Below are positions 6,874 to 42,962 of a stretch of DNA of 45,519 bases, piece after piece; position 1 is the first letter of the stretch, and the number at the start of each line of letters is the position of its first letter. The DNA is taken from positions 1-45,519 of the forward strand of contig JBAXAJ010000005.1 of NCBI GenBank assembly GCA_037142555.1, written 5' to 3'. The notes beneath the pieces are model-generated. The model did not search any database and had not been told where the DNA came from. It worked only from the letters and a program-made list of their open reading frames with translations. The DNA comes from Candidatus Shapirobacteria bacterium (lineage in GTDB: Bacteria > Patescibacteriota > Microgenomatia > UBA12405). The position numbers were made by a program, and so were the translations under genes.

Positions 6874-8040
6874 TTATTTATTTTTTCTTAAAAAGGCGGG
6901 GATGTCGAATTCGTCGATGATGTCAATTCCTTCTGGAATTTCTTTATTACCGAGCATTTTTTGGATTTGACTATTATCTATAGTTTTCATTTCTTCTTCT
7001 TGAGGAGGAGCTGTAGTTTGGAAATTAGGGATGTTGGTTTGAACAGACTGTTTTTTAATTGTTTGGTATATATGAGCTCGGGTGGTGTCAAAACCAGTGG
7101 CAATTACAGAAATTTTGATTTTACCCTTGAGGTTTGGATCAATAGTGGCACCAAAAATTATGTTTGAATCTGGAGCAGTGCGTTCAGTGATGGCTCTGGC
7201 TGATTCTTCAATTTCGGCCATGGTTAGGTCTGGTCCACCAGTGATGTTGATTAAAACTCCCCTAGCCCCTTCGATGTTAACTTCAACAATTGGAGAATCG
7301 ATTGCAGATTCGACAGCGAGTCTGGCTCGACCTTCACCTTCAGCTTCACCAGTTCCCATTAGAGCTGAACCAGCGTTACTCATGATTGATTTAATGTCGG
7401 CAAAATCGAGGTTGATTAGTCCAGGAACAGTGATTAGGTCGGCAATAGCTTTAGTTCCTTTGTTTAAAACAGAATCGGCAATTTTGAAAGCTTCGAGAAG
7501 AGTGGCTTTATTATTGACTACTTCCATGACTTTTTGGTTTGGGATAACGATTAGAGTATCAACATAATCTTTAAGTTGAGAAATGCCATCTTCGGCATTA
7601 GACATTCTTCTGGTACCTTCGAATAAAAATGGTTTAGTGACAACAGCGATAGTTAAGATTCCTAGTTCTTTTTTAGCAATTTGAGCAATAATTGGAGCAG
7701 CGCCGGTGCAGGTTCCTCCACCCATGCCGCCAGTTATGAAAACCATGTCGGTGCCTTCGAGGACTTCTTTAATTCTTTCTCTTGATTCTTCAGCCGCTTT
7801 TTGACCCATTTGAGGATTACCACCAGCTCCAAGACCTTTAGTTAATTTTTCACCAATTTGAATTTTAATAGGAGCAAGAGAATTTAATAGGGCTTGTGAA
7901 TCAGTGTTAACAGCAATGAAGTCAACACCTTGGATGCTGTCTTCAGAAATCATTGAGTTAATGGCATTATTTCCACCACCACCGACTCCGATAACTTTTA
8001 TTTTGGCAAATTGACCTGTAAGAGTTTTTACTAATCCCAT
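6874..8040 (-). CDS. ftsZ: Cell division GTPase FtsZ
   Basis: GVGGGGNNAINSM, the tubulin signature region GGMGGGTCTGAAP (with an unusual Cys) and NTDSQAL. Confidence 0.92.
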   Translation of the reverse strand: MGLVKTLTGQFAKIKVIGVGGGGNNAINSMISEDSIQGVDFIAVNTDSQALLNSLAPIKIQIGEKLTKGLGAGGNPQMGQKAAEESRERIKEVLEGTDMVFITGGMGGGTCTGAAPIIAQIAKKELGILTIAVVTKPFLFEGTRRMSNAEDGISQLKDYVDTLIVIPNQKVMEVVNNKATLLEAFKIADSVLNKGTKAIADLITVPGLINLDFADIKSIMSNAGSALMGTGEAEGEGRARLAVESAIDSPIVEVNIEGARGVLINITGGPDLTMAEIEESARAITERTAPDSNIIFGATIDPNLKGKIKISVIATGFDTTRAHIYQTIKKQSVQTNIPNFQTTAPPQEEEMKTIDNSQIQKMLGNKEIPEGIDIIDEFDIPAFLRKNK

Positions 8041-8045
8041 AGCAA

Positions 8046-9293
8046 TTATGGCAACAAAGGCTCGAGTAAAGATTTAATTCGATTAACAAATCCATTCATT
8101 GATATTTTTGATTTTTTAGTAGGAGTAGAAGTTTTTTTTGTTTCTTTATTAAACATAAGAAGACCAACTGAACTAGTGTAGGCAGGATTAAGTATATCAT
8201 CAATGATGCCGCCAACTTTAGGTGGGCTGGCAATTCTTAGAGGAAGTGGAATTATTTTACTGCAAGTTTCTTTGACATTAACTGTTTGAGCTCCACCACC
8301 AGTTAGAACGATTCCAGCTGGGATTATGCGAGTGTAACCACTGTTTTCTATTTGTTCATAAATTATGGAAAATATTTCTTCAAGTCGTGGTTTAATTATG
8401 CCGTTTACGGCTGTTTGAATAGAAATTTTTCTTTTGTCTTGATCGTCAATGTCGAAATGAGAAAGTTCAACTTCATCTTCGAATTTTTTACTTTCAACCA
8501 TTTTGGTTAATTTAATTTTGACTTTTTCAGCTTCTTCAAGAGAAAAACGGAGACCAATAGCTAAATCATTTGTGACATTGTTGGCTCCAATAGGAATGAC
8601 TGAGGAATAGATCGGGGCGCCTTCATTAAAAATAGTTAGAGTAGTGACACTGCCACCAACATCAACTAGAGCAACTCCAAGTTCTTTTTCGGTTTCAGTC
8701 AAACAGGCGCTGGCGGTTGAGAGTCCAGAATAGATTAGACTTTCGATTCGGACACCAATTTCTTCAAGACATTTTTTGAGGTTTTTGATGGCTGGACTTG
8801 AGGCGATGATGATGTGGGCGTCCATTTCTAGTCTGGTGCCGTTCATGCCGATTGGGTCGATGACTCCATCTTGGCCATCAACTGTGAATTTCATTGGAAT
8901 TATGTGAAGAATTTCTTTGCCCATAGGAATAGAAACAGCTTTGGCAGCTTCAATTACTCGATCGATGTCGTTGGCGACAATTTCTCCATTTTGGCTGCTG
9001 ATAGCAACAACCCCTTGAGAATTAATGGATTCAATGTGTGGAGCAGCGATTGAGACAGTGGCGTTAATTATTTGGAAACCAGCCATTCTTTCGGCTGATT
9101 CTATACTTTGAGTTATTGTTTGAGCGGCTTGTTCAAGATTAATTATTTGACCTTTTCGGAAACCAAGAGCTGGAATTGAGGAAACAGCAATTATGTTTAA
9201 TTTATTGTCTTCATTCTCTAGAAATTGGCCAATGATAGTGGTAACTTTTGAGGTTCCAATGTCTATTCCACTAATTATCTTTGAATGTTGCAT
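8046..9293 (-). CDS. ftsA: Cell division protein FtsA
   Basis: Actin-like ATPase boxes (GIDIGTSKV, LVDVGGSVTTL, VLTGGGAQ). Directly upstream of ftsZ. Confidence 0.88.
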   Translation of the reverse strand: MQHSKIISGIDIGTSKVTTIIGQFLENEDNKLNIIAVSSIPALGFRKGQIINLEQAAQTITQSIESAERMAGFQIINATVSIAAPHIESINSQGVVAISSQNGEIVANDIDRVIEAAKAVSIPMGKEILHIIPMKFTVDGQDGVIDPIGMNGTRLEMDAHIIIASSPAIKNLKKCLEEIGVRIESLIYSGLSTASACLTETEKELGVALVDVGGSVTTLTIFNEGAPIYSSVIPIGANNVTNDLAIGLRFSLEEAEKVKIKLTKMVESKKFEDEVELSHFDIDDQDKRKISIQTAVNGIIKPRLEEIFSIIYEQIENSGYTRIIPAGIVLTGGGAQTVNVKETCSKIIPLPLRIASPPKVGGIIDDILNPAYTSSVGLLMFNKETKKTSTPTKKSKISMNGFVNRIKSLLEPLLP

Positions 9294-9337: not shown

Positions 9338-10423
9338 TTAAATAAGTTTATTAATTAAATTTAATAGTTTTAAATTAGGTTGATAAGTGATTTTTGAAGA
9401 TGAAACTTTAAGTTTATTAAGCTTTAAAATGCCTTCTAATAGACTTTTTTTATTTAATTCTTCTTGCTGAATAATGATAGTTTTGTCAGGGAGTTGTTTT
9501 TTAACCCAAGAAGCATTAATTTTTTGTTCATCTTGTTGGCTTTTAAAAAGAGGGATTAAAATTGATGATTTTTTGAGAGCAACTATTTCTTGACTAGTGT
9601 TGGCTCCAGAACGGCTGATTAATATTTTAGAATTGGAAAAAATCCAACCAATGTCATTTGAATTGACATATTCAATTGGATAATAATTTTTATATTTTTG
9701 AGTTAATTTTTTAAATTTTGAATAATCAGTTTTGCCGGTTTGGTGGATAATAGTGAAATCTTTTAAATTTGAAAGAATTAATTTAATAGTGTCATTTATG
9801 GTTTTAGAACCTTGGTTACCAGCAGTTATATAGATGATAGGACTTTGATTTTTTTTGATTATTTTTTCAAAATATTTTGAACTTTGGTTGTAAATTTCTG
9901 AACGAAGAAGATTTCCAGTTATGACACTTTTTTCTGTTTGGTCTTTATTTTCAAAAGAAAGAGCGACTTTGTTGACAAATAAACTGTTTATTTTAGTAGT
10001 TAAACTGATGGTTGGAGTTTGTTCATGAGTGATAGATGGAATTCTTTTGAGCCAGCTGGAAATGATTACCGGGACTGAAACATAACCACCAAAAGAGGCA
10101 ACAATGTCTGGTTTGATTTTAGAAACTTGGTTATAAGCTTGAATTACACCTTTGATGGTTTGAGGAATGCCTTGAATGGTGTTTGGAAGCCATCTTCGGT
10201 CTAGTTTGCCACAAACAATTGAACTAAAATTTACTCCTAGTTTAGGAATTATCTCGGATTCAATTGAAGGAGTGGTGTCAACGCTGGAATTATATTGACG
10301 GCCAATATAATAAATTTGCCATTTTGTTTTAGAGTCTTTTTTGAGCTGAGATATTAATTCAACGGCGGGAGTGAGATGGGTGCCGGTGATGATTATTTTC
10401 TTTTGTAGATCCTTTGATTTCAC
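9338..10423 (-). CDS. murG: Lipid II synthase MurG (UDP-GlcNAc:lipid I GlcNAc transferase)
   Basis: GT28 layout: N-terminal ITGTHLTPAVEL in place of the G-loop, ITAGNQGSK, and SRSGANTSQEI. Follows ftsW, as in dcw clusters. Confidence 0.8.
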   Translation of the reverse strand: MKSKDLQKKIIITGTHLTPAVELISQLKKDSKTKWQIYYIGRQYNSSVDTTPSIESEIIPKLGVNFSSIVCGKLDRRWLPNTIQGIPQTIKGVIQAYNQVSKIKPDIVASFGGYVSVPVIISSWLKRIPSITHEQTPTISLTTKINSLFVNKVALSFENKDQTEKSVITGNLLRSEIYNQSSKYFEKIIKKNQSPIIYITAGNQGSKTINDTIKLILSNLKDFTIIHQTGKTDYSKFKKLTQKYKNYYPIEYVNSNDIGWIFSNSKILISRSGANTSQEIVALKKSSILIPLFKSQQDEQKINASWVKKQLPDKTIIIQQEELNKKSLLEGILKLNKLKVSSSKITYQPNLKLLNLINKLI

Positions 10424-11501
10424 CCTTTGAGTATATCAGTAAATGGTTCTGTTTTTCGATATTATGTACTAATCCGACAGCTGAAAGAAGAGTTAAAAGA
10501 GATGAGCCTCCATAGGAAATAAATGGCAGTGGAACTCCGGTCAAAGGAATGATGGCAACAATGGCAGAAATGTTGATTAAACTTTGATAGGCAATCCAAC
10601 AACCAACGCTGGCGACTAGTAGAGACTGGAAAGGATCGGGAATTATTTGACTTAATTTAATTAAATAAGTGATTAGATAAATATAAATTAATAAAATAAC
10701 CATAATTCCAAAAAAGCCCATTTCCTCCCCTATTACAGCGAGAATTGAATCGGTTGATATTTTAGGGAGATAACGATATTTTTGGTCTGAATTAGCAAAA
10801 CCTTTGCCGAATAAACCACCAGAAGACAGGGCTAAAATTATTTGATTACTATGATAGGAACTAGTGCTTTGTTCGGCTTGAGGGTTAAGAAGAGTTTTAA
10901 GTCTGGCGTAGCGATATGGAGAAAGGATTATTAGAAGTAAACTTAGAAATACAGCCACTCCACAAAGTTTGAATAAGGGCATGATTTCCCCACCAGAAAG
11001 ATAATAAATAGAAATAATTATGGCGGAAATGAGGATGGCAGTGCTTAGATTTGGTTCTAAAATAATTAAGGCAAAAGGAATACTTAGGTAGAAAATCAGG
11101 CTTTTTATGTTTCTTTTTTCTTTAATTGAAAATAAAAAAGAAAAATAAATAATTGAAGTGAACTTTAATATTTCTGATGGTTGAATACTAAAAATTCCTA
11201 AATTCAGCCAACGCCTGGCTCCAAGAGTTTCATTACTTAGGCCAGGAACTAAAACTAGGAGAAGAGCGATTAAAGTGGCGATGTAAATTGAAAATGAAAA
11301 TTTTTTAATAAAATCTAGTTTTATTTTTGAAGTTATGTAGAAACAAATTATGCTTAAGACAAGCCAAAGAGATTGTTTTTTAAGGAAGAAGAATTTGTCT
11401 CCCATGCTTGAACTGGCTTCAGTTAGTGAAGAGATTGAGATGAAAACTAGACCAATGGCAATTAAACTAAAGACTAAAAAAAGTAGGGGCGATTTTTTCA
11501 T
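10359..11501 (-). CDS. ftsW: SEDS-family protein, dcw-cluster copy (FtsW)
   Basis: SEDS boxes (IQPSEILKF, DSILAVIGEEMGFFG, IPLTGVPLPFISYGGSS). Start placed at MKKSPLLF (11501) rather than the track's 11549. The 3' end overlaps murG by 65 nt. Confidence 0.75.
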   Translation of the reverse strand: MKKSPLLFLVFSLIAIGLVFISISSLTEASSSMGDKFFFLKKQSLWLVLSIICFYITSKIKLDFIKKFSFSIYIATLIALLLVLVPGLSNETLGARRWLNLGIFSIQPSEILKFTSIIYFSFLFSIKEKRNIKSLIFYLSIPFALIILEPNLSTAILISAIIISIYYLSGGEIMPLFKLCGVAVFLSLLLIILSPYRYARLKTLLNPQAEQSTSSYHSNQIILALSSGGLFGKGFANSDQKYRYLPKISTDSILAVIGEEMGFFGIMVILLIYIYLITYLIKLSQIIPDPFQSLLVASVGCWIAYQSLINISAIVAIIPLTGVPLPFISYGGSSLLTLLSAVGLVHNIEKQNHLLIYSKGEIKGSTKENNHHRHPSHSRR

Positions 11502-12594
11502 AATCAATTTTAACAGGATTAGTGTCTTTAGAAAAAACAGAAAAATCATTAAACTTTTTGATAGTTAAATTATTTTCGTCTTTTTTGACAATTTCTGAAC
11601 CAATTAGGTTTTGATTATAAAAACGATTTTGTTCACTTTCTATATCAATTTGGTAATCAAGATTTAAAAATTCAGCCAAGTGGAAATAGAAGAGTGGAGT
11701 TAAATTTTGGTTTAATTCAATTTGAGTGTAAAAAGCAAAAGAAGCGGTTAGGCGAGGATTACATTCTAGAAGATAGACTTGATCTTGACTGACAAAAAAA
11801 TCGAGACCAAAAAAGCCTTTATAATTTAGTCTTTTTAAAATATCACCAAAATTATTAGTTATTGATTTAACTTTTTCTTGTAAATCTTCTGAAATATTGG
11901 CTGGCCATTGACGACCAACCGTGGCAAAAGGATTGTCAGTCAATTCGATTAAGCCAGTGTATTGGAGAGCAGGTGGACTTTGGATTAGACCACTTTTGGT
12001 TAAGCAACAATTGTTAAGCAGAGAAAATCCTTCTAAAAATGGAGAAAACTTGACGAGAGTGTTTGGAGCTATTTTAGATTCAATGTTTGGCCAATTATTA
12101 GAATCAAAAGTGCTGTTCCCTGCCCAACCAAAATGAGTTTGAACAACTAGATGATTATTGTAAAGTTGTTGATATTTAAGAAAATTTTCTTGGGTGAAAG
12201 AGTCTATTGATGATGGAATTGCTGGCAGATTAAATTGAGTGCAGATTTCACTAAATTTGATTTTATCTTCTAAAAATCTATTTAGAGAACCAGGATTATT
12301 GATGTTAACCCAAGAATTTTTTTTGCATAAAAAATCGATTTTGCTTGATGCCTTGAAAGAAATTATGGCTGGAGTGCGATTGTTTTCTTTAGATTTCTTA
12401 GAAATATAATCGATTACTTTTGGGTCAGATAGAAGTTTCCCACTGTTTTTTATTTTAACTGATGGATAATCAGAAAGATAAATTTTTTGGAAATTATTGA
12501 GTTGAGGGAGGTCAATGTCTAGAAGTTCATCGACAACTAAAAAATAGAAATCGAATGGACTTTGGTTTAGAAGATTTTCTAGATTAGAATTCAT
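11467..12594 (-). CDS. ATP-grasp superfamily ligase, specificity unknown, not a canonical Ddl
   Basis: LEDKIKFSEICTQFNLPAIP, then a central domain, then GFFGLDFFVSQDQVYLLECNPRLT (ATP-grasp Mg/ATP loop). The Ddl signatures I know (e.g. GEDG..Q) were not seen. Confidence 0.65.
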   Translation of the reverse strand: MNSNLENLLNQSPFDFYFLVVDELLDIDLPQLNNFQKIYLSDYPSVKIKNSGKLLSDPKVIDYISKKSKENNRTPAIISFKASSKIDFLCKKNSWVNINNPGSLNRFLEDKIKFSEICTQFNLPAIPSSIDSFTQENFLKYQQLYNNHLVVQTHFGWAGNSTFDSNNWPNIESKIAPNTLVKFSPFLEGFSLLNNCCLTKSGLIQSPPALQYTGLIELTDNPFATVGRQWPANISEDLQEKVKSITNNFGDILKRLNYKGFFGLDFFVSQDQVYLLECNPRLTASFAFYTQIELNQNLTPLFYFHLAEFLNLDYQIDIESEQNRFYNQNLIGSEIVKKDENNLTIKKFNDFSVFSKDTNPVKIDYEKIAPTFFSL

Positions 12595-13355
12595 CTTTTA
12601 GCTCCAGTTAATAAAATGACAGGATGTTGACCACAGTCGATATTATTTTTGATTGCTTTGTAATAACCAGCAAGAGCTAGGGCACTTTCGTTGGATGTTT
12701 GAATATTATTTTTTTCTAAAAATTTTTGAGAAGAAATTATGTCTTCATTTTGGATAATTAGTTCTGAACCATTAGAATCTTTGACAGCAGAAATGACTCT
12801 ATTTTTTAGAGGTTGAAATTTAACAGTTAAAGCATCGGTTAGGGTTGTGTCTTTTGGTTTGACTGAAAAAACTTTTACATTTGAAAGGGCTTGGGAAATG
12901 CCAAGAAGAGTGGTGCCACTGCCCACTGGAACGAAGATACTGGTGATTTGAGGACATTGTTCTAATAATTCTCTACCAATTGCTTGATAGCCGATTAGAG
13001 CGGTTGGGTCAGTTGATTGACGGAGATAATAAGCATTATTTTTTTTGGCAAATTTAAAAGCATCACTGATTGGTTTTAAAGAAAATTGGACTTGATCAAT
13101 TTGTGATTTGATTTCTTTTAGTTTTTGAGGATCAATTTTTGGTGATAAGAAAACAGTTAGATCAATGTTGTTTAGTTTGCAAAAATGAATAGCAGAGATG
13201 GCAGCATTGCCAGTGCTGGAAATTACTGCTTTGGTGAAACCCTCTTTAATTAAATTTTGGACTTGGACAGAAATGGCTCTATCTTTGGCAGATCCGGTTT
13301 CATTTAAGTCTTCTCTTTTTAGATATATATTGTCTAGTTTGATTAGTGGAGTCAT
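12591..13355 (-). CDS. Minimal fold-type II PLP-dependent enzyme (threonine synthase / cysteine synthase-like), 254 aa
   Basis: REDLNETGSAKDRA (PLP-lysine box), SSTGNAAIS, PVGSGTT and a C-terminal LLTGAKR, as in the Trp-synthase-beta superfamily. Shorter than typical members. Confidence 0.65.
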   Translation of the reverse strand: MTPLIKLDNIYLKREDLNETGSAKDRAISVQVQNLIKEGFTKAVISSTGNAAISAIHFCKLNNIDLTVFLSPKIDPQKLKEIKSQIDQVQFSLKPISDAFKFAKKNNAYYLRQSTDPTALIGYQAIGRELLEQCPQITSIFVPVGSGTTLLGISQALSNVKVFSVKPKDTTLTDALTVKFQPLKNRVISAVKDSNGSELIIQNEDIISSQKFLEKNNIQTSNESALALAGYYKAIKNNIDCGQHPVILLTGAKR

Positions 13356-13364
13356 TGTTATAAT
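13356..13364 (+). promoter_or_regulatory. Extended -10 element (TGtTATAAT) 7 nt upstream of the LysW-like ATG
   Basis: Exact TGnTATAAT at 13356-13364, ATG at 13372, no SD sequence. Spacing fits a leaderless transcript. Confidence 0.35.
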
Positions 13365-13371
13365 ATATTAT

Positions 13372-13539
13372 ATGACAGAAGACAATAAAAAAATACTTTG
13401 TCCTGATTGTGGGGCAGAAATAATTAAAACTGAAGAGATGATGGTTGGAGATATCGTTGAGTGTCAAGAATGTGGCACTGAGGTTGAAATTTTATCTCTC
13501 GAGCCATTGCAATATCGAGAATTAGTTGAGGAAAAGTAA
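13372..13539 (+). CDS. LysW/ArgW-like amino-group carrier protein (zinc ribbon, 55 aa)
   Basis: MTEDNKKILCPDCGAEIIKTEEMMVGDIVECQECGTEVEILSLEPLQYRELVEEK. It is collinear with Thermus LysW as I remember it (CPECGAEL...GELVVCEDCGAELEV..L.PLRLEP..EE). The track ORF 13198-13539 has an implausible N-terminal extension antisense to the PLP gene. Confidence 0.6.
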   Translation: MTEDNKKILCPDCGAEIIKTEEMMVGDIVECQECGTEVEILSLEPLQYRELVEEK

Positions 13540-14073
13540 TCTCCAGAAACCTTGATGGATGAAGTTTTTGTCGGTGAGATCGGCTTGACCATATTTGACT
13601 CCCCTGCCGGAGAGAGAGCTGTCAACATATTCTATGATGTTTCCATTTTTTTCGATAATAAATAAAACATGATGACCATTTTTTTGTCTGGCTAAATCAC
13701 CTGTTTTAATTTCAGTTGCTTTTATTTCTTTTGAGAGTGGTTTTGAAGTGAGCATGTTGGCTGAGTTTTTTCGAGGATTTAGATTAGTCCCAAGATAAAA
13801 ATTTAAAAGTTGGCAAACAAGACCAGAACAATCAATTCCAATATTATTTTTTTTCTGGAAATTATAGATTTCTTGGGGAGATAAAGATAATAACTTTATA
13901 TTTTTATCGTTGGCTATTTCAATAGTTTTTAGGGCTATTTCTTTGGCACTACCTTTGCCTCCTAGAATTTTTTCTTTGATTATTTTGCCGTTCTTGAGAA
14001 GATTTTTACTATATGGCAAACCAATATAGTGTTTAATTTCTTCTTTAAGTTCTATTAATTTAGTCCCAACCAT
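13522..14073 (-). CDS. NlpC/P60 family cysteine peptidase (gamma-D-glutamyl amidase type), no signal peptide
   Basis: GIDCSGLVCQL (catalytic Cys), IKTGDLA, GHHVLFII (His). Start taken at MVGTKL (14073). The N-terminus is hydrophilic. Confidence 0.7.
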   Translation of the reverse strand: MVGTKLIELKEEIKHYIGLPYSKNLLKNGKIIKEKILGGKGSAKEIALKTIEIANDKNIKLLSLSPQEIYNFQKKNNIGIDCSGLVCQLLNFYLGTNLNPRKNSANMLTSKPLSKEIKATEIKTGDLARQKNGHHVLFIIEKNGNIIEYVDSSLSGRGVKYGQADLTDKNFIHQGFWRLLFLN

Positions 14074-15089
14074 AGTCCAAATATAGCTAATATTATTCCA
14101 GCTAGCCAAGCTCGAGTTACAATTTTTGGTTCTTCCCAACCAATCTTTTGAAGAGTTAAGTGAAGTGGAGCAGCAGGAAAAACTTTTTTATTAAAATATT
14201 TTTTACTAATGATTTGAATAGCACTACTCATTCCTTCTATGATGAATGGAGCTCCAATAATTAATAGTGGAACTACTTTCCCAAGAAGCAGAGCGATGAC
14301 AGCAATGGTGGCTCCAAAAGATAAAGATCCAACATCACCTAGCCAAATTCTGGCTGGAAAAATGTTGAAGTATAAAAAGGCAATTAGGGAACCAATCCAA
14401 AGAGCCAAGAAGACTGAAATAGGAGTGTCGAGGGAACTGTTTGATATGAACCAAAAAGCAAAAAGACAAATCATTAGAAGACCACAAGAAAGGCCATCTA
14501 ATCCATCTGTGATGTTAAAAAAATTGGAAAAGCCAGTTATCAAGAGAACAGAAATTGGGATATAAAAAATGCCTAAATTGACTGCTCCTAGGAATGGAAT
14601 GTAAATAAAATCTATTCCTAAACTGAAGAAAATGTAGCTGGAAATTAGACCAGCAATGATTAATTGAAGAATTAGTTTATGAACCATTTTTAAGCCAAAA
14701 AAGCCAGTTGTTTTGAAATTAAAAAACTTATGGATATCATCATAAAGTCCAAGTAATCCAAAACTAATGAAGGTAAAAAAGATGACTATTAATTCTTTAT
14801 TTATTTGATAATTTGACGAAATGAAGATATTGGAAAATTTTAAAACTGGGAAAAGAATAGCAAAAAGAATGCAGACGGCTACTATAATTAATAGTCCTCC
14901 ACCAACTGGAGTTCCTGTTTTTTGTTCATGAAATTTATCAAAAATCGGAGTTCTTTTGTTTTGAAAATCTAGAGTTTTTTGTTTTTGACGTTGGAATTTT
15001 AGTTTATAGAGAAGATCAATGAAAGGAACGACGAGAATGCTTGTAAGTAAGAAAGAAACTAAAAGTAGACCTAAATATAAGTGAGTCAT
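14055..15089 (-). CDS. mraY: Phospho-MurNAc-pentapeptide translocase
   Basis: Polytopic protein. NITDGLDGL box, a C-terminal PLHLTLQKIGW region (canonical HHHFE box not obvious), GT4-polyprenyl-phosphate transferase layout. Confidence 0.88.
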   Translation of the reverse strand: MTHLYLGLLLVSFLLTSILVVPFIDLLYKLKFQRQKQKTLDFQNKRTPIFDKFHEQKTGTPVGGGLLIIVAVCILFAILFPVLKFSNIFISSNYQINKELIVIFFTFISFGLLGLYDDIHKFFNFKTTGFFGLKMVHKLILQLIIAGLISSYIFFSLGIDFIYIPFLGAVNLGIFYIPISVLLITGFSNFFNITDGLDGLSCGLLMICLFAFWFISNSSLDTPISVFLALWIGSLIAFLYFNIFPARIWLGDVGSLSFGATIAVIALLLGKVVPLLIIGAPFIIEGMSSAIQIISKKYFNKKVFPAAPLHLTLQKIGWEEPKIVTRAWLAGIILAIFGLWLGLN

Positions 15090-15092
15090 AAT

Positions 15093-16421
15093 TTATGTTT
15101 TTATATATTCTATATTAGCACCTAAAGAACAAAGACGTTCTGCGAGTTTTTCATAACCTCTTTCGATATATTCAACTCCATCGATAATGGATTTACCATT
15201 AGCGGTTAGAGCGGCTAGGGTTATTGAGGCGCCTGATCTTAAATCATTAATAGAGAAAGAAGCTGGTTTGAGTTTAGCTGGTCCATAGATTTTGACTCCA
15301 TGGAAATATTTTTCATCATCACTTTCTTTATTAAATTCATAAAAAGTTTCAGGATCCTCGACTTTTGGATTGAAGAAAGTAATTTTGGCTCCCATTTTTT
15401 TGAGATCATTAATATGTTGAAAACGATTTGGGTAAACTCTTTCGATGATTGAACTGCAACCAACTGTTTGAGTTAAAACTAAACTGAAAATTGCTTGCCA
15501 GTCGGTCATGAAGCCTGGTTCTGGTCCTGTTTCGATATTAATACTAGTTAGAGGCTTGACCCATTCGACACAAATTTCATCGTTACCAGTTTTGATTTCA
15601 GCACCCATTTTTTTGATGGTTTCTAAAAATGTTTTAACAATGTCTGGTTGTATTCTTAGAATACAAATAGAACCTTTGGTGGCAAGAGCGGCACAAGCAA
15701 AAGTTATTATTTCATTTCGATCACAAATTACACTGTGTTCTGTACCATTTAATTTAGAAACACCTTGAATGGTGATTCTTTTAGGATTATTAATGTCTCT
15801 TTGAATTTTGGCACCCATGCTGTTTAACATCAAAATGAGGTCATCAATTTCTGGTTCCATGGCAGCATTGTCAAGAATGGTTTCACCAATAGTTAGGGCT
15901 GCTGTCATTATAATAACTTCAGTTATGGTGTGGGTTGGTTTTGGGAAAGTGTAGTGAGTTGGTTTAATTCCAGTAGTTTTAAAAATTATGTTGCCATTTG
16001 TTTCTTCTGTAGTTATGTTCATTTGAGAAAAACAGTCAAAAAGTCGATCTAGAGGTCTGGCTCCAAGTTTGTCTCCACCAGGAATTGGGATTGTGGCATT
16101 GCCAGTTCTTAATAGAAGTGGAGCGGCAAACATAAAAGAAGCTCGAGATTTTTCACCAGTTCCACTTGGAACAATGGAGTTAGTTATTTTAGGAGTGGTT
16201 AATTCAAGACAATGATCACCTTTTTGTTTAACTTTACAACCAAGACTTTTAGCGATACTAGTGGTTATTTTTACGTCTGAAATTTGAGGAACGTTGTTCA
16301 AATTAACAGTTTCCTCAGTCAACATCGAGGCAATTATCTGTTTAAAACTGGCATTTTTTGCTCCACGAATGGAAACTTCACCTTTTAATGGTTTTCCTCC
16401 AGTGATTATATATCTAGACAT
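15093..16421 (-). CDS. murA: UDP-GlcNAc 1-carboxyvinyltransferase
   Basis: ITGGKPLKGEVSIRGAKNA start. The active-site loop reads IPGGDKLGARPLD, with Asp where E. coli has Cys115. Confidence 0.88.
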   Translation of the reverse strand: MSRYIITGGKPLKGEVSIRGAKNASFKQIIASMLTEETVNLNNVPQISDVKITTSIAKSLGCKVKQKGDHCLELTTPKITNSIVPSGTGEKSRASFMFAAPLLLRTGNATIPIPGGDKLGARPLDRLFDCFSQMNITTEETNGNIIFKTTGIKPTHYTFPKPTHTITEVIIMTAALTIGETILDNAAMEPEIDDLILMLNSMGAKIQRDINNPKRITIQGVSKLNGTEHSVICDRNEIITFACAALATKGSICILRIQPDIVKTFLETIKKMGAEIKTGNDEICVEWVKPLTSINIETGPEPGFMTDWQAIFSLVLTQTVGCSSIIERVYPNRFQHINDLKKMGAKITFFNPKVEDPETFYEFNKESDDEKYFHGVKIYGPAKLKPASFSINDLRSGASITLAALTANGKSIIDGVEYIERGYEKLAERLCSLGANIEYIKT

Positions 16422-17706
16422 ATTTGATTATTTTTTTAAAAGTTTTTTGACTGGATAGGCCACCAGAGCTCATATAAATAAGGATATCATTTCCAACTAA
16501 TGATTGTTGATAGTGTTTGATAATGTCTTGTTCAGTTGGTAAATATATCAATTTAGATCCAATTTCTTTTTTGAAATCAGAAGCACTGACACGATCTTCT
16601 TTGCTTATATCTTTGTTGAATTTAATTTGGCCTAGGACAATTTCAACAGCTCCATTGAAAGCATCTTTAAGCCCAATTAAGCTGTCTTTATATTGTAAAA
16701 ATGAAGCATGAGGGAGATAGAATACTTTAATTTTTCTTTTTGGATATTTTAATTTAAGAGCTTCTATGGTTGATTTAATTCTTGGAGCTGATTGAGCAAA
16801 ATCATCAAAAAATAAAATATTGTTGGAATCAGCGACTAGTTCGAGACGTCGTTTGACACCTTTAAAAGTGGCCACAGCTTTGTCAATTATTTTTTTATTT
16901 ATGCCTAATTCTTGGCATAAAGTGATGGCTGCTAATTTGTTTTCATAATCATAATTACCGTCTGTTTGAGTTTCGTAGGTAACTATTCTGGCTTTAGTTA
17001 ATTTTGAAAGTTCTTGAGTTTTAAAACCAAGTTTATTAATTACTAAAAGTCCATTTTTTGGTAGATTAGAAACTAATTTTTTGAAAGCATTAAAATTTTC
17101 TGATTCTGATTTATAAGAATCTTTGTGCTCCCATTGAGCGCTGGTTAAAATTAGATATTTTGCGGGATAATATAAAAATTTGGCTTGGGTGTCTAGACCA
17201 TTAATTGATTCATCGGCTTCGATTATTGACCAGTCGGATTTGGTTATGTCTAGAGAATCAAATTTATTTAAGCTTTGACCACCAAACATATAACTTGGGT
17301 TTAGATTAGCTTTTTTAAATATCCAAACAAGTAGACTAGTAATAGTTGTTTTCCCATATGATCCAGCAACTAAAATTGGATTGTTTTTACTGACATACTT
17401 GGCGATATATTCTGTGGCAGAAATATATTTTATTTTTAATTTTTTGATTTGTTCAAATTCAGTTCTGGTTTTTTCAAAAGAATTATAAGAAGATCCAATT
17501 ATAGCCAAATCAATATTTTTATTAATGTTGGTATTATTAATTTTAATTTTGGCGCTATTTAGAGTGGTGCTAATCGGTGGGTAAATTTTGTCTTGGTCAG
17601 AACCAGTTATTTGATGACCTTCTTTTTTAAGAGCAACAGCTAGTGCTGCTGTCATAGTCCCAGCTATTCCAATTATGTGTATTTTCATATTTATAAAGTA
17701 GTCCAA
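16414..17706 (-). CDS. mpl: Mur ligase of the Mpl type (UDP-MurNAc:L-Ala-gamma-D-Glu-diamino acid ligase-like); could also act as MurC
   Basis: Collinear with E. coli Mpl from memory: MKIHIIGIAGT...GHQITGSD, IYPPISTTL (Mpl VYPPMSTLL), GSYGKTT, IIEADE, KRRLELV, FFDDFAQS, and the C-terminal ILIYMSSGG (Mpl ILVMSNGGF). Confidence 0.65.
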   Translation of the reverse strand: MDYFINMKIHIIGIAGTMTAALAVALKKEGHQITGSDQDKIYPPISTTLNSAKIKINNTNINKNIDLAIIGSSYNSFEKTRTEFEQIKKLKIKYISATEYIAKYVSKNNPILVAGSYGKTTITSLLVWIFKKANLNPSYMFGGQSLNKFDSLDITKSDWSIIEADESINGLDTQAKFLYYPAKYLILTSAQWEHKDSYKSESENFNAFKKLVSNLPKNGLLVINKLGFKTQELSKLTKARIVTYETQTDGNYDYENKLAAITLCQELGINKKIIDKAVATFKGVKRRLELVADSNNILFFDDFAQSAPRIKSTIEALKLKYPKRKIKVFYLPHASFLQYKDSLIGLKDAFNGAVEIVLGQIKFNKDISKEDRVSASDFKKEIGSKLIYLPTEQDIIKHYQQSLVGNDILIYMSSGGLSSQKTFKKIIKYV

Positions 17707-18281
17707 CTATTATTATTGAAATATTCGAAACCTGGCATGTTTCTTTTGTAATAACCATTTTCTTTTGAAAAACGACCGAGGTATGAATATTTGAGATTTT
17801 CTGATTGACTGTCGATTATTACTTGAAGAACTAATCTGATTGGAAGATTCCCATGACTATATTCAGGATCGTAAAAGACATAAGCAACATGGCTAATTTC
17901 TGGAGAAAAATAACAAAGAGTATAGGCGATTATTTTATTTTCTTCATTTTTCCAAACATAAACATAATTAAAAATATGATTTGTAAAAATTGTTTTTACT
18001 GAACTTGTTGGGAAATCCCATTCTAATTTTTTAATCCAAGAACTTATTTCTTTTTGGATTTGAGGAGTGTATTCAAATTGGTTTAGAGCTATTTTTTGAA
18101 AAGTGAAATTTTCTGTTTTTCTTAAAATACGACGATTTTCTGAACTAATTTCAGAAAAAGACAGATTGGAACGACAACTTGATTCTTGGTAGAAAAGATC
18201 TTTATCATTTCTTTGAGGTAAAAAACCAAGTTGGTAATTTTGATCGATAGTGTTTGAATTTTTTATATTGAATTGAGACAT
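17691..18281 (-). CDS. Arginyl/leucyl-tRNA-protein transferase (ATE/Bpt)-like protein, reduced form (196 aa)
   Basis: LGFLPQR...FSEISSENRRILRK resembles the ATE_N end. SHVAYVFYDPEYSHGNLPIRLVL...YSYLGRFSKENGYYKRNMPGFEYF..NSW resembles ATE_C (SA.Y.F.DP....LG...YLGY......M.YK..F.P.E). The N-terminal Cys cluster is absent. Confidence 0.55.
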   Translation of the reverse strand: MSQFNIKNSNTIDQNYQLGFLPQRNDKDLFYQESSCRSNLSFSEISSENRRILRKTENFTFQKIALNQFEYTPQIQKEISSWIKKLEWDFPTSSVKTIFTNHIFNYVYVWKNEENKIIAYTLCYFSPEISHVAYVFYDPEYSHGNLPIRLVLQVIIDSQSENLKYSYLGRFSKENGYYKRNMPGFEYFNNNSWTTL

Positions 18282-19510
18282 TAGTTTATGTTTTTATATC
18301 TAAAAGCGGTTCTGTAGGCTTCTGCTTCTGACCAAGGGTATTCGGTTTTTCCATGGAGAATTGATGTTTCATGACCTTTCCCACAAGCGATGATAGTGTC
18401 CCCTGTTTCAGCTAGTTTTATAGCTAAATTGAAGGCATCTTGTCGGTTAGGAATGTCAAAATATTTAAACTTTGGTCTTTTAACAATTCCACTGATTATT
18501 TGTTGATTAATATCTTCAACTTTTTCATCTCGAGTGTCATCAGCGGTGATTATAGCGATGTTGGCATTTTCAGAAACAACCTTTCCCATTATTGGTCTTT
18601 TAGATTTATCTCTGCCGCCAGTGGCACCAAAAATAATAATGATTTTACCAGTGGTGTTTTTCTTTAAAGATAATAGAGTGCTTTCAAGTGCAGCTGGAGT
18701 GTGAGCAAAATCAATTAAAGTTTTAAATTTAAAATCATTTGGAAATTCTTCAGTTCGGCCTTTAATTTTTGGAAAAACTTTGACAGTTTGGATTAATATA
18801 TTTGGATCAATATTGAGTTTGTCGATGATAGCAAAAGTGAGAAGAATATTATAAATTTGATAATAATAATTACTGTCAGTTATAATTTTGAGTTTTTTGA
18901 CTTTAAATTCAATATTTTTTTTGTCTATTTTTATTTTAGTGGCGTGGTAGTTTGATTTTGAATCGATTCCATAGCTGATGACTGTTTTATTAATTTCTTT
19001 TTTAATTTTATTAAATGAATCATCGTCTTTATTTAAAATTACAGTTTTAGCGGCTTTGAAAAGTTTAGTTTTAGCACTGATGTAGGTGTCTAGATCACGG
19101 AAATAATCTAGATGTTCGTGAGAAATATTGGTCAATCCGGCTATTTCGAATTTACAACCAAAATATCTAAATTGATCAATAGCATGTGCGGTAACTTCTA
19201 GAACAACATGAGTCACTTTTTCTTTGACCATTTGACGTAATAGTTTTTGGATTACGATTGGGTCCGGAGAAGTCATATGGAGTTGGGTGTTATATTCGCT
19301 ATCACCTATCTTGGCTCCAATAGTAGAAATCAGACCAGCTTTGATGCCTGAATTAGTTAAAACATGATGAATTAAATTGCAGGTTGTAGTTTTACCGTCA
19401 GTTCCAGTGACACCAATTAAAATTAGTTTTCTTGCTGGAAAACCATATATTAAACTCAATAAAAAATTTTTTGGTAAATGCCAAAGGATATTTTTCAGTT
19501 TTTGTATCAT
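18281..19510 (-). CDS. murE: MurE-like Mur ligase with a short N-terminus (409 aa)
   Basis: GVTGTDGKTTT P-loop at residues ~34-44, HEHLDYF, DFAHTPAALESTL, GATGGRDKSKRPIMG, ADDTRDE (in place of DNPR), GKGHE. Confidence 0.75.
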   Translation of the reverse strand: MIQKLKNILWHLPKNFLLSLIYGFPARKLILIGVTGTDGKTTTCNLIHHVLTNSGIKAGLISTIGAKIGDSEYNTQLHMTSPDPIVIQKLLRQMVKEKVTHVVLEVTAHAIDQFRYFGCKFEIAGLTNISHEHLDYFRDLDTYISAKTKLFKAAKTVILNKDDDSFNKIKKEINKTVISYGIDSKSNYHATKIKIDKKNIEFKVKKLKIITDSNYYYQIYNILLTFAIIDKLNIDPNILIQTVKVFPKIKGRTEEFPNDFKFKTLIDFAHTPAALESTLLSLKKNTTGKIIIIFGATGGRDKSKRPIMGKVVSENANIAIITADDTRDEKVEDINQQIISGIVKRPKFKYFDIPNRQDAFNLAIKLAETGDTIIACGKGHETSILHGKTEYPWSEAEAYRTAFRYKNIN

Positions 19511-19521
19511 TTTGTATTTTA

Positions 19522-21147
19522 TTATAACAAATTATTGATTTTTGAGGCCAATTCGAACCAAATTGGAGCAGCAGTGCTTGAACCCCAAGGCGAGCTTTTT
19601 GGGTTATTGATGGTGACTATCATAGTGAATTTAGGGTTTTCACAAGGAGAAAAGCCGATATATGAGGCAATAGTTGATGAATTAGTGTAATCCCCTTTTA
19701 TGGCAACTTGAGCAGTTCCGCTTTTGGCACAAACTTCTAGATCTTTTGGTTTCATTTTTGCAACAACTCCATTTTCAACAGCATATTTTAAGATGGCTTT
19801 CATTTGACTAGTTGTTTCGGGTTTAAAAACTTTAGTTTCAGGTTTAAATTTGGCTTTTATAATTTTATTATTTTCATCAAAATGATCGACAACATAAGGT
19901 TTAACTAAAACTCCGTTGTTGGCAATAGTGTTGAAAGCTTGAAGCATATTGATTTGAGTCATAGCTATCCCCTGTCCAAAAGAAGCGGTGGCTAGATCAA
20001 TTTCTGGCCATTCTTCTTTTAGAAGTGGTTTAACTTCACCTTGAAGATCAATTCCGGTTTTTTGATCTAAACCAATTTTGTGATAGTAATCTAGAAAGTT
20101 TTTTTCTCCTAATTTCCCAATGATATAACTCATACCGATATTGTCAGAGTTTTTAATAATATCTTGAAGTGATGAATTTGGGTGTAATTCTGAATCCCAA
20201 TTAGTGATGGTGTATTTACCAATTGCTCTTTGAGAACCACAGCCAGTGCAGACAAAATTAGTATCAATGGATTTTTTATCTAGAGCCATAGTCACTATTA
20301 AAGGTTTAAAAATTGAGCCTGGTTCGAAAAGATCGGAAATAGCTGGGTTTTTGAAGGCGCTGGGAGTGGCGGAGCTGGTGGCAGTCAAAGTTGACATTGC
20401 TAATAGAGCACCAGTTTTTGAATTGATGATGGTGATTGAGCCGGAATCAGATGTGTATCTGTCTAGGCCTTGTTGGAGTAATCTTTCTGATAGTACTTGG
20501 ATATTTCGGTTAATAGTGGTGTGTAGATTTCGGCCATCAACGGCATCAGAAGTCCAACTTTTTTTAGTTAGAATTGTTTTTCCAGTGCCATCTTTGGTGC
20601 CCAGAGAAAAGCCAGTTTTACCTTTTAATTGTTTGTCATAATAGGCTTCTAAACCCCCGACGCTATTATTACCTAAAATATCTTTAGCTAGATTATTTTC
20701 GGGATATAAACGTTTTTCAATATTTTGAAAATCGAGATTTAAATTTTTTAGATTTTCTTTTTGATTTTCAGTGACTTCTATTGGGAACGTGATCCATTTT
20801 CTATTAGAGTCAGCAATGAAGCTATTTATTAAATTTTGATTGTCTTGTTTGAAATTAGGGATGTTTTGGTCTATCTTTTGGAAAAGTTCATCTAATTTAT
20901 TATCTTTTATGTTGGGTTTATAGACAGATAATTGATAATAATTTCGATTAAGAACGATTGGATAGCCATCTGAAGTGAAAATTTTGCCTCTTTTTGGGTT
21001 AATTGTTTCTAATTTATAAGTTTGGTTTAGAGCTTTTTCTTTAAGTTCTGGTTCTTTAATTACTTGCCAATAAAAAAGTCTGACAGTTATTAGGGCAAAA
21101 GGTATTAGTAGTGCTATTAATAATAGTTTTGATCTTTTTGGTGACAT
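19522..21147 (-). CDS. ftsI: Class B penicillin-binding protein / transpeptidase
   Basis: N-terminal TM segment. SIFK (SxxK), SDN (SxN), KSGT (KTG-type). Sits between ftsL-like and murE. Confidence 0.85.
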   Translation of the reverse strand: MSPKRSKLLLIALLIPFALITVRLFYWQVIKEPELKEKALNQTYKLETINPKRGKIFTSDGYPIVLNRNYYQLSVYKPNIKDNKLDELFQKIDQNIPNFKQDNQNLINSFIADSNRKWITFPIEVTENQKENLKNLNLDFQNIEKRLYPENNLAKDILGNNSVGGLEAYYDKQLKGKTGFSLGTKDGTGKTILTKKSWTSDAVDGRNLHTTINRNIQVLSERLLQQGLDRYTSDSGSITIINSKTGALLAMSTLTATSSATPSAFKNPAISDLFEPGSIFKPLIVTMALDKKSIDTNFVCTGCGSQRAIGKYTITNWDSELHPNSSLQDIIKNSDNIGMSYIIGKLGEKNFLDYYHKIGLDQKTGIDLQGEVKPLLKEEWPEIDLATASFGQGIAMTQINMLQAFNTIANNGVLVKPYVVDHFDENNKIIKAKFKPETKVFKPETTSQMKAILKYAVENGVVAKMKPKDLEVCAKSGTAQVAIKGDYTNSSTIASYIGFSPCENPKFTMIVTINNPKSSPWGSSTAAPIWFELASKINNLL

Positions 21148-21353
21148 TATTGATTTAATGGATTTGAAATTGAAGTAAGTTCAGCTAGTTTTTTTTCTAG
21201 AACTTGTTGTTGTTTTTCTAAAATATCTAATTGGGAGAGATTTTTATTAAGTAAATTATTCTGATTAATAATTTCGCTTGAATAATAAAAAGAAAAAGAG
21301 ATTTGGAGAACTATAGTTACAGCTAAAATAATTATAAAAATTTTATTAGACAT
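21147..21353 (-). CDS. FtsL-like small bitopic coiled-coil protein
   Basis: 68 aa with one TM helix and a Leu-rich heptad stretch. Lies between rsmH and ftsI. Assignment is by position and architecture only. Confidence 0.5.
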   Translation of the reverse strand: MSNKIFIIILAVTIVLQISFSFYYSSEIINQNNLLNKNLSQLDILEKQQQVLEKKLAELTSISNPLNQ

Positions 21354-21362
21354 TAAACTATT

Positions 21363-22247
21363 CTATATGATTCTATATGATCTGAGTGTGGCTGAACGAG
21401 ATAATGGGTTTTTTGATACTTCTTTATGATTTGCTTTGACTGATTTTGATTTATTTGTGATTAGATTGTTATCAAAACTATTTTTAATAAATTGTTTAAC
21501 AATTCTGTCTTCTCCAGAATGAAAAGTTATTATGACAACTCTGCCATTTGATTTAATTGAAGTTAGAGTTTGAGCTAGAAGATTTCTTAAATTTTCAAAT
21601 TCTTCATTGACTAATATTCTTAAGCTCATAAAAATTTTAGTGCTAGGGTCAGTGTTGGTTCTGATGTTGCGTTGTTTATAGTAATCTCTGATGATGTTGG
21701 CTAATCTTTCACCTGATTTTATTGGTGATTTTTGGCGTTCTGTGATTATCCTTAAAATTAGAGGTTTGCTGTAGACTTCTTGACCATATTTAGTGAAAAC
21801 TTTATACAAATCTTCGAAAGAAGCAGTGTTTATGACCATTTCAGCAGTCACTTCTTGATTTTCAGGATCAAGACGCATGTCTAGAGATGAAGTGTCGTTG
21901 AAAGAAAATCCCCTATTTTGTGACTTTTGTTGATTTTGACTTAAACCAAGGTCAACAATGATTCCAGAAATTTCTTTTTTAATTTGGTTTTTAACAATAT
22001 CTTCTAATTTATTAAAGTTTGAATGAATTGGAAAAAAGTTTTTTCCCAGACCTTCTTTTTTAATCCTTTCTTGGGTTATTTTCAAATTATTTGGGTCTTG
22101 GTCAATTCCATAAACAATGCCACCTTTTTTAAGAATTTCGAGAGTGTGTCCACCGTTTCCAAGAGTAGCGTCGATATAAACTTCACCACTTTGAACATCG
22201 AGAAGATCGATCGTTTCTTGAGATAAAACTGGTAAATGATATTCCAT
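21363..22247 (-). CDS. rsmH: 16S rRNA (cytosine1402-N4)-methyltransferase
   Basis: YIDATLGNGGH, DLGLSQNQ, SGEDRIVK and a C-terminal NPLSRSATLR motif. Confidence 0.9.
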   Translation of the reverse strand: MEYHLPVLSQETIDLLDVQSGEVYIDATLGNGGHTLEILKKGGIVYGIDQDPNNLKITQERIKKEGLGKNFFPIHSNFNKLEDIVKNQIKKEISGIIVDLGLSQNQQKSQNRGFSFNDTSSLDMRLDPENQEVTAEMVINTASFEDLYKVFTKYGQEVYSKPLILRIITERQKSPIKSGERLANIIRDYYKQRNIRTNTDPSTKIFMSLRILVNEEFENLRNLLAQTLTSIKSNGRVVIITFHSGEDRIVKQFIKNSFDNNLITNKSKSVKANHKEVSKNPLSRSATLRSYRII

Positions 22248-33404: not shown

Positions 33405-33405
33405 T

Positions 33406-37445: not shown

Positions 37446-37446
37446 A

Positions 37447-38043: not shown

Positions 38044-38050
38044 AGATTAA

Positions 38051-39166: not shown

Positions 39167-39169
39167 GAT

Positions 39170-42919: not shown

Positions 42920-42962
42920 TGATTAGTCTAATTATAGTTCATGTTATCCTAATAATTAGTTT

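Follow-up and report, generated by a model that had tools for sequence, protein, structure and literature searches.

A variant dcw gene cluster of Shapirobacteria that may encode an unusual route to the peptidoglycan stem peptide

Gene content and conservation of the cluster

The region described here is a dcw (division and cell wall) gene cluster from a Candidatus Shapirobacteria bacterium (contig JBAXAJ010000005.1), in which a shortened MurE and a ligase of the MurC/Mpl superfamily stand together with genes for ATE-like, LysW-like, ATP-grasp and pyridoxal phosphate (PLP)-dependent proteins. The window, that is, the whole stretch of DNA analysed, measures 45.5 kb and is AT-rich (G+C about 31%). 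The cluster forms a tightly packed operon on its minus strand, running from 22247 down to 6874. Family searches confirmed the gene order and coordinates proposed in an earlier note, which had been made from the sequence of this stretch, and gave the following succession, in which only the LysW-like gene lies on the plus strand.

21363..22247, minus: rsmH (MraW methyltransferase; PF01795, E 3.3e-75), the first dcw gene, with no mraZ upstream
21147..21353, minus: ftsL-like membrane protein, 68 aa, recognized by position and an N-terminal hydrophobic helix
19522..21147, minus: ftsI, class B penicillin-binding protein transpeptidase (PBP_dimer and Transpeptidase, E 1.2e-59)
18281..19510, minus: short MurE, 409 aa (TIGR01085, 342 bits; Mur_ligase_M and Mur_ligase_C)
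17691..18281, minus: ATE-like protein, 196 aa (PF04377 ATE_C, E 1.5e-6)
16414..17688, minus: MurC/Mpl-superfamily ligase of a putative third clade, 424 aa from the ATG at 17688
15093..16421, minus: murA (NF006873, 431 bits; TIGR01072, 408 bits; both above cut-off)
14055..15089, minus: mraY (PF00953, E 2.2e-28; median identity in relatives 78%)
13522..14073, minus: NlpC/P60-family cysteine peptidase (P60), 183 aa (PF00877, E 1.5e-5)
13372..13539, plus: LysW-like zinc-ribbon protein, 55 aa (TIGR01206, E 4.6e-11)
12591..13355, minus: fold-type II PLP enzyme, 254 aa (PF00291, E 1.2e-37)
11467..12594, minus: ATP-grasp carboxylate-amine ligase, 375 aa (PF02655, E 2.8e-7)
10359..11549, minus: ftsW (TIGR02614, 314 bits)
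9338..10423, minus: murG (TIGR01133 and NF009102, E 1e-51 to 1e-53)
8046..9293, minus: ftsA (from its translation; Pfam match on an orthologue)
6874..8040, minus: ftsZ (from its translation; Tubulin and FtsZ_C on an orthologue)

Neighbouring genes abut or overlap, those for the PLP enzyme and the ATP-grasp protein, for example, by 4 nucleotides (nt). The translation of FtsI carries the motifs SxxK (as SIFK), SDN and KSG; the FtsL-like protein has no family match and has tblastn matches in many relatives. Set against the gene order of E. coli, the murF slot between murE and mraY is occupied by the ATE-like gene, the third-clade ligase gene and murA, and the murD slot between mraY and ftsW by the genes for P60, the LysW-like protein, the PLP enzyme and the ATP-grasp protein. 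The murC-ddl-ftsQ slot is empty, murG and ftsA being 44 nt apart with no ftsQ, murC, murB or ddl in between. Scans of the window for promoters and terminators gave a result no better than shuffled sequence.

The absence of murC, murD, murF, murB, ddl, ftsQ and mraZ, which the earlier note had claimed for the window, was upheld by tblastn; it extends to the 45.5-kb window and to the 10 kb on either side of the ligase gene in relatives. E. coli MurB, MurD, DdlB and FtsQ have no match in the window at E ≤ 1, and MraZ (20 residues, E 0.035) and MurF (E 0.76) have only short matches at chance level, while MurC, Mpl and MurE as queries match nothing there except the two Mur ligases. The ATP-grasp protein is matched by Ddl models over about 50 residues only (E 2e-5 to 2e-3; E 0.18 against the PDB). 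The sequence gained by extension from both window ends, within a reach of 10 kb around a match, holds glycan genes, ribosomal proteins and ParB only.

Conservation was followed with one genome per GTDB species, which gave 80 loci, nearly all of them from Shapirobacteria. Within 10 kb of the ligase in these 80 species loci, E. coli MurC, MurD, MurF, MurB, Ddl, FtsQ and MraZ found no homologue. The gene order is essentially invariant in the 80 loci and in L002; a 1.1-Mb contig at about 58% identity (50–60%) has the identical order. The accessory proteins are conserved to the same degree as the core ones (median identity 54–70%): LysW-like 70%, ATE-like 63%, FtsI 59%, P60 57%, MurG 57%, PLP enzyme 55% and ATP-grasp protein 55%. 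The cluster is thus neither a chance assemblage nor an assembly artefact. In 41 relatives a protein of 127–129 aa with one N-terminal membrane helix is encoded between murG and ftsA, the position of ftsQ (L002, 18790–19173; L089, 18427–18816); it does not occur in the window. Among the GTDB representative metagenome-assembled genomes with the cluster, many (L010–L031, L050 and others) bear the title "uncultured Gammaproteobacteria" and one the title "Candidatus Methanoperedens"; the public records in question are apparently mislabelled.

The two Mur ligases

The short MurE is a member of its subfamily by the TIGR01085 model (342.1 bits against a cut-off of 257.3), which it matches over model positions 75–470 only. 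Pfam finds Mur_ligase_M and Mur_ligase_C and no other domain, and MurE chains in the PDB align only from their residues ~92–134 onwards, so that the UDP (uridine diphosphate)-binding domain 1 is missing, as the earlier note had proposed. The P-loop GTDGKT lies at residues 36–41 and is found 35–43 residues after the start in about 70 related species. The earlier note had seen no upstream start that would restore domain 1, with ftsI ending 11 nt before murE; this gap was confirmed, and in all of the ~70 species the frame from stop to stop is too short for the ~90 residues of that domain. Frameshift or misassembly as the origin of the short form is ruled out by its presence in about 70 independent assemblies.

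The P-loop, EVT(A)H, the position of the carbamylated Lys, GKGHE and DDTR are each at least 90% conserved among 76 orthologues. The last of these, which the earlier note had pointed out correctly, stands in place of the DNPR of enzymes of the meso-diaminopimelate (DAP) type, with the Arg kept and the Asn and Pro changed. Based upon the retention of the catalytic motifs and a MurE model score above the cut-off, the short MurE is in all probability an active ligase under selection, without the part that holds the uridine nucleotide in E. coli MurE.

MurT and the M domain of cyanophycin synthetase are Mur-ligase relatives which act on substrates not linked to UDP. Both occur among the matches to the short MurE and align without an equivalent N-terminal region. 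Like MurT and other Mur relatives devoid of the UDP domain, the short MurE consists of the middle and C-terminal domains without a nucleotide-binding N-domain, which implies that its substrate would not be UDP-bound. Unlike MurT, it belongs by its TIGR01085 score to the MurE subfamily proper, its similarity to MurT being marginal (E 3e-7).

The second ligase (16414–17688) is the only Mur ligase of the cluster with a UDP-binding N-domain, and it keeps the GIxGTM/D31 UDP motif. Mpl joins a preformed L-Ala-γ-D-Glu-diamino acid tripeptide to UDP-linked N-acetylmuramic acid (UDP-MurNAc) during recycling. The earlier note took the ligase to be collinear with Mpl rather than MurC, and the motifs it had cited are present: IYPPISTTL aligns with VYPPMSTLL of Mpl, and the C-terminal MSSGG (within ILIYMSSGG) with MSNGG. 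The ligase also has in common with Mpl an extra segment of about 6 residues after EADE which MurC does not have. In BLASTP E. coli Mpl scores 153 bits (28% identity) and E. coli MurC 92 bits (22%), and the closest relative in the PDB is 3hn7, the Mpl of Psychrobacter arcticus. When 1.8 billion representatives were searched by profile, the Mpl-type spacing of 32 residues was seen in nearly all of the 150 best relatives, and most of the 150 score higher with E. coli Mpl. Since the long spacing is seen in some basal members of the MurC group as well, the segment may be ancestral rather than a shared derived feature.

The residues proposed to bind the peptide in the C-domain of Mpl differ in the ligase, HHP being replaced by QS(A/P) and EPRSNT by PHASF. 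The His/Arg/Arg set which binds L-Ala in MurC is likewise altered, since PHASFLQ aligns to PHRFTRTRD with both Arg gone. A crude neighbour-joining tree (Kimura distances, rooted on one MurD, some distances saturated), which we read as three clades without a firm sister relation, separates canonical Mpl from MurC and both from a third clade, to which the window ligase belongs. By sequence, then, the enzyme appears to be of a third clade of the MurC/Mpl superfamily, neither true Mpl nor true MurC. It resembles Mpl in its three-domain architecture with a UDP-binding N-domain and in its proposed role, the attachment of a preformed peptide; it differs in belonging to a separate clade and in that it would serve the main biosynthetic route, not recycling.

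Accessory proteins and distant lineages

The ATE-like protein scores 29.2 bits with ATE_C (PF04377; cut-off 25). It has no ATE_N, and it reaches only 22–25 bits with the NCBIfam arginyltransferase models (cut-offs 170–267). Its AlphaFold 2 model (pLDDT, the predicted local distance difference test, 88.7) was compared by Foldseek, with human and yeast ATE1 as top matches (E 5e-9, probability 1.0, TMq 0.64–0.71), followed by MprF aminoacyl-phosphatidylglycerol synthases, Sba18/Sbb17 and FemX; the structural neighbours are exclusively aminoacyl-tRNA-dependent transferases. There are 569 homologues, the best 120 being 65–79% identical (the window's own protein, 100%). From this model the protein is predicted to be an aminoacyl-tRNA-dependent aminoacyl transferase. 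It has the fold of the Fem/MurM and ATE1/Bpt enzymes, and Fem enzymes already link aminoacyl-tRNA to peptidoglycan precursors. The differences are that it has only 196 aa and no ATE_N, that its gene lies between murE and that of the UDP-MurNAc ligase, and that its proposed acceptor would be the α-amine of the stem Glu, not the ε-amine of Lys.

The LysW-like protein (42.4 bits with TIGR01206, cut-off 53.2; PF21344 recorded on orthologues) is represented by about 60 orthologues of 50–57 aa with a zinc ribbon of the form CPDC...CxEC (CPDC...CQEC in the window), thus of the CxxC...CxxC kind. In true LysW of Thermus the EDWGE tail bears the attachment site, its C-terminal Glu. Here the C-terminus is nearly always EEK, three of the orthologues ending in ETK or EQK, and in distant loci it is EEEK (L089) or DEGK (L094). 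What is conserved in the tail is the terminal Lys, not the Glu of true LysW, and the protein may be regarded as a candidate carrier. That it is instead a ribosomally made, consumable template of the stem peptide, with its ...EEK tail, is unlikely on grounds of cost.

As in the LysW/LysX system, an acidic-tailed zinc-ribbon protein of about 55 aa is encoded beside an ATP-grasp protein, a PLP enzyme and a hydrolase. It departs from that system in ending in EEK rather than EDWGE and in falling below the TIGR01206 cut-off; moreover the ATP-grasp protein falls outside the LysX/RimK type, the PLP enzyme is of fold-type II and not an aminotransferase, and the hydrolase belongs to NlpC/P60 and not to the M20 peptidases. 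The LysW-like gene always stands head-to-head with the PLP gene, even at about 30% identity (17 nt apart in the window, 13355–13372), an arrangement which implies a divergent promoter of its own. Its 3' end overlaps that of the P60 gene by 18 nt in the window (13522–13539).

The PLP enzyme keeps its Schiff-base Lys in a conserved motif, TGSAKDR. Its nearest kin are the short threonine synthases (PRK08329, E 3.8e-31, below cut-off), and in the PDB it is related to Thr deaminase, SbnA, Ser/Asp racemases, ThrC and CysK. The ATP-grasp protein matches PRK06524 (E 1.6e-34, below cut-off), and its AlphaFold 2 model (pLDDT 92.7) has biotin carboxylase, PurT, PurK and PurD as top Foldseek matches. P60 scores 25.4 bits with PF00877 (cut-off 23). 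The Cys of GIDCSG and a downstream His are invariant in 63 orthologues, and with no N-terminal hydrophobic segment or signal sequence the protein is cytoplasmic. Public annotations name the ligase "Mpl" or "Mur ligase family protein" and the ATP-grasp protein a "predicted carboligase"; the ATE-like protein figures in them as hypothetical or as an arginyltransferase.

More distant loci were examined as the contexts of third-clade ligases 29–37% identical to that of the window.

L089: mraZ, rsmH, ftsL, ftsI, short MurE, ATE-like, ligase, murA, mraY, LysW-like, PLP, ATP-grasp, ftsW, murG, x, ftsA, ftsZ; no P60
L090: short MurE, ATE-like, ligase, MurB, MurA
L092 (349–4612): MurE without domain 1 (408 aa), DUF1611/DgcN-like protein, ligase with the Mpl motif AFFDKKSKF
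L095: ligase and a divergent ATE-like gene
L094 and ten relatives (L096–L105): stand-alone ATP-grasp, P60, MraY, DUF1611, ligase, LysW-like, PLP, MurA-like

None of these contexts (L089, L090, L092, L094–L105) holds murC, murD, murF or ddl. The island of L094 and its relatives lies outside any dcw cluster, with RuvB and NusA/trigger factor on its flanks. The genes for the LysW-like, PLP and ATP-grasp proteins, and for P60 where it is present, are thus tied to MraY, MurA and the ligase, i.e. to the making of the lipid I substrate. Immediately upstream of the third-clade ligase stands an ATE-like or a DUF1611 gene, at least one lineage (L089) can do without P60, and L092 extends the pairing of short MurE and Mpl-like ligase beyond the clusters that contain an ATE-like gene. 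ATE/Bpt enzymes act on N-terminal Asp or Glu. DgcN, a named member of DUF1611, N-acylates D-Glu (PMC12363236). Both alternative partners of the ligase therefore come from families that acylate the α-amine of Glu.

In some contigs among L096–L105 (e.g. L101, 4103–13861) DUF1611 and the ligase are separated by an inserted IS200-type transposase and APH-like kinase, and in these relatives an S11 D-Ala-D-Ala carboxypeptidase is encoded about 6 kb from the island.

Outside the cluster the window encodes glycyl-tRNA synthetase (GlyRS), RecO, a DUF4012 protein, a large glycosyltransferase cluster, MetK, RodA and isoleucyl-tRNA synthetase. GlyRS (22948–24285, minus; NF003211, E 1.6e-170) lies upstream of rsmH, with a conserved 237-aa membrane protein (22248–22961, minus) directly before rsmH, at the usual position of mraZ; both are syntenic in all Shapirobacteria loci and in the distant L089. 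The vicinity of GlyRS to a predicted aminoacyl-tRNA transferase deserves mention, yet this may be just the housekeeping enzyme. An envelope-glycan cluster (28591–43000) comprises a polyprenyl-phosphate sugar transferase, a mannose-1-phosphate guanylyltransferase, many GT2/GT4 glycosyltransferases, a Wzy_C-like polymerase and a hexapeptide acyltransferase. RodA (2407–3402, minus; TIGR02210, 294 bits) is a second SEDS (shape, elongation, division and sporulation) protein besides FtsW, so that the organism has peptidoglycan polymerases of both the elongation and the division type.

A possible route to the stem peptide and its alternatives

Since murA, mraY, murG, ftsW and ftsI are of the ordinary kind, a UDP-MurNAc-peptide, lipids I and II and cross-linked peptidoglycan are made. 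We suggest that this dcw cluster is a variant specific to the lineage, whose genes provide a non-orthologous route to the precursor of peptidoglycan in which the peptide is partly put together off the nucleotide; we would put this reading a little short of an even chance. The same weight, nearly even, is given to its more specific part, namely that MurD and MurF have been replaced non-orthologously, with peptide bonds formed apart from the nucleotide before the Mpl-like ligase attaches the peptide. This replacement is suggested by the presence of other genes in the very slots of murD and murF, the loss of the UDP domain of MurE, the presence of a single UDP-binding ligase, and its partners from Glu-acylating families. 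Off-nucleotide assembly, which the earlier note had put forward, is made plausible by the finding that the extra genes form a conserved and co-inherited unit; the individual steps that we attach to it are conjectural.

In such a route the stem peptide would be assembled, in part or whole, off the nucleotide. The ATE-like enzyme could transfer the N-terminal residue (L-Ala or Gly) from aminoacyl-tRNA onto the α-amine of Glu, a step which the DUF1611/DgcN-like enzyme would perform in other lineages, and the MurE without domain 1 would form the bond between γ-Glu and the diamino acid on a substrate not linked to UDP, i.e. a peptide that is either free or bound to a carrier. The ATP-grasp and PLP enzymes, together with the Lys-ending LysW-like protein, might supply a residue or the C-terminal part, which P60, where present, might release. 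The ligase of the MurC/Mpl family would then join the preformed peptide to UDP-MurNAc, as Mpl does in recycling. Both the order of these steps and their substrates are inferred. In its fullest form, namely that Shapirobacteria and related Patescibacteria do without MurC, MurD, MurF and Ddl and build the stem off the nucleotide on a Lys-ending LysW-like carrier (by short MurE, the ATE-fold or DUF1611 protein, and the ATP-grasp and PLP enzymes), with attachment en bloc by the Mpl-like ligase, the proposal is a tentative one and on the unlikely side.

Literature searches turned up one alternative route, MurD2/MurL, the alternative peptidoglycan pathway of Xanthomonas (PMC8788868). It provides a precedent for the exchange of a canonical cytoplasmic step of stem-peptide synthesis in limited lineages. 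It differs in that its substrate is still UDP-MurNAc-L-Ala, with MurC, MurE and MurF retained; in the cluster described here a MurD homologue is lacking, and proteins of other kinds (tRNA-transferase-like, ATP-grasp, PLP and LysW-like) come in.

Several observations weigh against a route of this kind. The Mpl signature (S/T)AFFDKRSK (Das et al. 2011, PMC3060825) is not kept in the ligase, whose aligned segment SINGLDTQAK has only its length, the Asp and the final Lys in common with it. The ligase scores 217.2 bits with the murC model TIGR01082 (cut-off 335.1) and thus more than the 164.4 bits it reaches with the mpl model TIGR01081 (cut-off 388.7), and in about 81% of the bootstraps of the crude tree MurC is the sister group of the third clade, a figure to be taken with the saturation mentioned above. 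The Mpl type assigned in the earlier note accordingly holds for the BLAST scores, the extra segment and the MSxGG motif and not for the signature or the family models, and from the model ranking and the tree the enzyme could simply add L-Ala. The ranking is not decisive, because the relative that bears AFFDKKSKF also scores higher with murC (290.7) than with mpl (277.2). Further, murB is never part of the Shapirobacteria cluster in the 80 species loci, and murA lies outside it in 11 species (L043, L055, L056, L058, L062, L065, L066, L076, L077, L081 and L083); some peptidoglycan genes are therefore placed elsewhere, and the loss of murA from an otherwise identical cluster indicates that such genes can be relocated in this clade. 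Canonical murC, murD, murF, ddl and murB may thus sit elsewhere in the genome. No source was identified in the cluster for the D-Ala-D-Ala end needed by FtsI, and neither sequence nor fold reveals a substrate for the ATP-grasp protein (whose fold neighbours are generic, a PDB sequence search being equally uninformative), the PLP enzyme or the LysW-like protein. Full-text searching of the literature found no description of this cluster.

Under the main rival explanation the pathway is canonical, with murC (or the ligase acting as MurC), murD, murF, ddl and murB encoded by the genome, those not in the cluster lying elsewhere, and the extra genes modify the stem peptide. The dispersal of murA and murB, the murC score and the position of the ligase clade in the tree all fit it. 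The ATE-like protein, whose model also has FemX and MprF as neighbours, would be a Fem/MurM-type branch transferase acting on the diamino acid, while the PLP enzyme, with Ser/Asp racemases among its relatives, and the ATP-grasp protein would be a racemase and a D-amino-acid branch ligase like Racfm/Aslfm of Enterococcus; D-Asp branch ligases are indeed ATP-grasp enzymes (PMC2922099). We consider this explanation rather unlikely, since it accounts neither for the loss of the UDP-binding domain of MurE in every species nor for the exact placement of the new genes in the murD and murF slots. It also gives the LysW-like protein no role, and a distant lineage has the same accessory genes in a stand-alone operon with MraY, the ligase and MurA-like only.

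Another idea, which we regard as improbable, is that the LysW-like, PLP, ATP-grasp and P60 proteins constitute a minimal carrier pathway to a non-standard amino acid for use by MurE, such as a diamino-dicarboxylic compound in place of meso-DAP, the remaining pathway being canonical or as proposed above. In the LysW/LysX/LysK pathway, LysW-type carriers work with ATP-grasp ligases and a hydrolase releases the product. The PLP enzyme is closest to β-replacement enzymes (ThrC, SbnA, CysK), and MurE retains the DNPR Arg, the residue by which the distal carboxylate of DAP is bound. The carrier has a C-terminal Lys instead of Glu, though, the ATP-grasp protein is not of the LysX/RimK type by hidden Markov models or by fold neighbours, and the substrate cannot be deduced. 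Biosynthetic genes are very few in these organisms and their metabolism is sparse (PMC6744442), which may be counted in favour of this idea and equally of the salvage put forward in the earlier note, where muropeptides are imported from a host or partner, the cytoplasmic NlpC/P60 trims them and the Mpl-like ligase joins them as a block to UDP-MurNAc. The Mpl-like features of the latter and a P60 without a signal peptide but with its catalytic Cys and His kept are consistent with salvage. As the core logic of the cluster it is nonetheless very unlikely, and of all the readings pure salvage is the weakest. The cluster of L089, complete in other respects, lacks P60, the synthetic enzymes (MurE in clusters of the dcw type, the ATP-grasp protein, and the ATE-like or DUF1611 protein) are always kept, and salvage alone has no need of a conserved MurE, ATP-grasp protein or tRNA-transferase-like enzyme. 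The cluster has no transporter or amidase, and a salvaged tri- or tetrapeptide would still require the addition of D-Ala-D-Ala for FtsI.

The MurC-D-E-F ladder is considered near-universal among bacteria with a cell wall, and it is a classic target of antibiotics. The cluster, in which two of the four ligase slots hold genes for a tRNA-transferase-like enzyme, a candidate carrier protein, a PLP enzyme and an ATP-grasp protein, is a concrete candidate for a second route to the stem peptide: a variant of the dcw/peptidoglycan precursor system, and a new pathway if the canonical ligases are truly absent. Its proteins are all small and should be expressible in E. coli. The proposed route, if true, would assign functions to several families now hypothetical or misnamed, such as the ligase and the ATE-like protein, which the Joint Genome Institute records as Mpl and arginyltransferase, respectively. 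It would also caution against scoring a peptidoglycan pathway as "complete" from partial gene lists, and would bear on the composition of the cell wall in bacteria of the Candidate Phyla Radiation.

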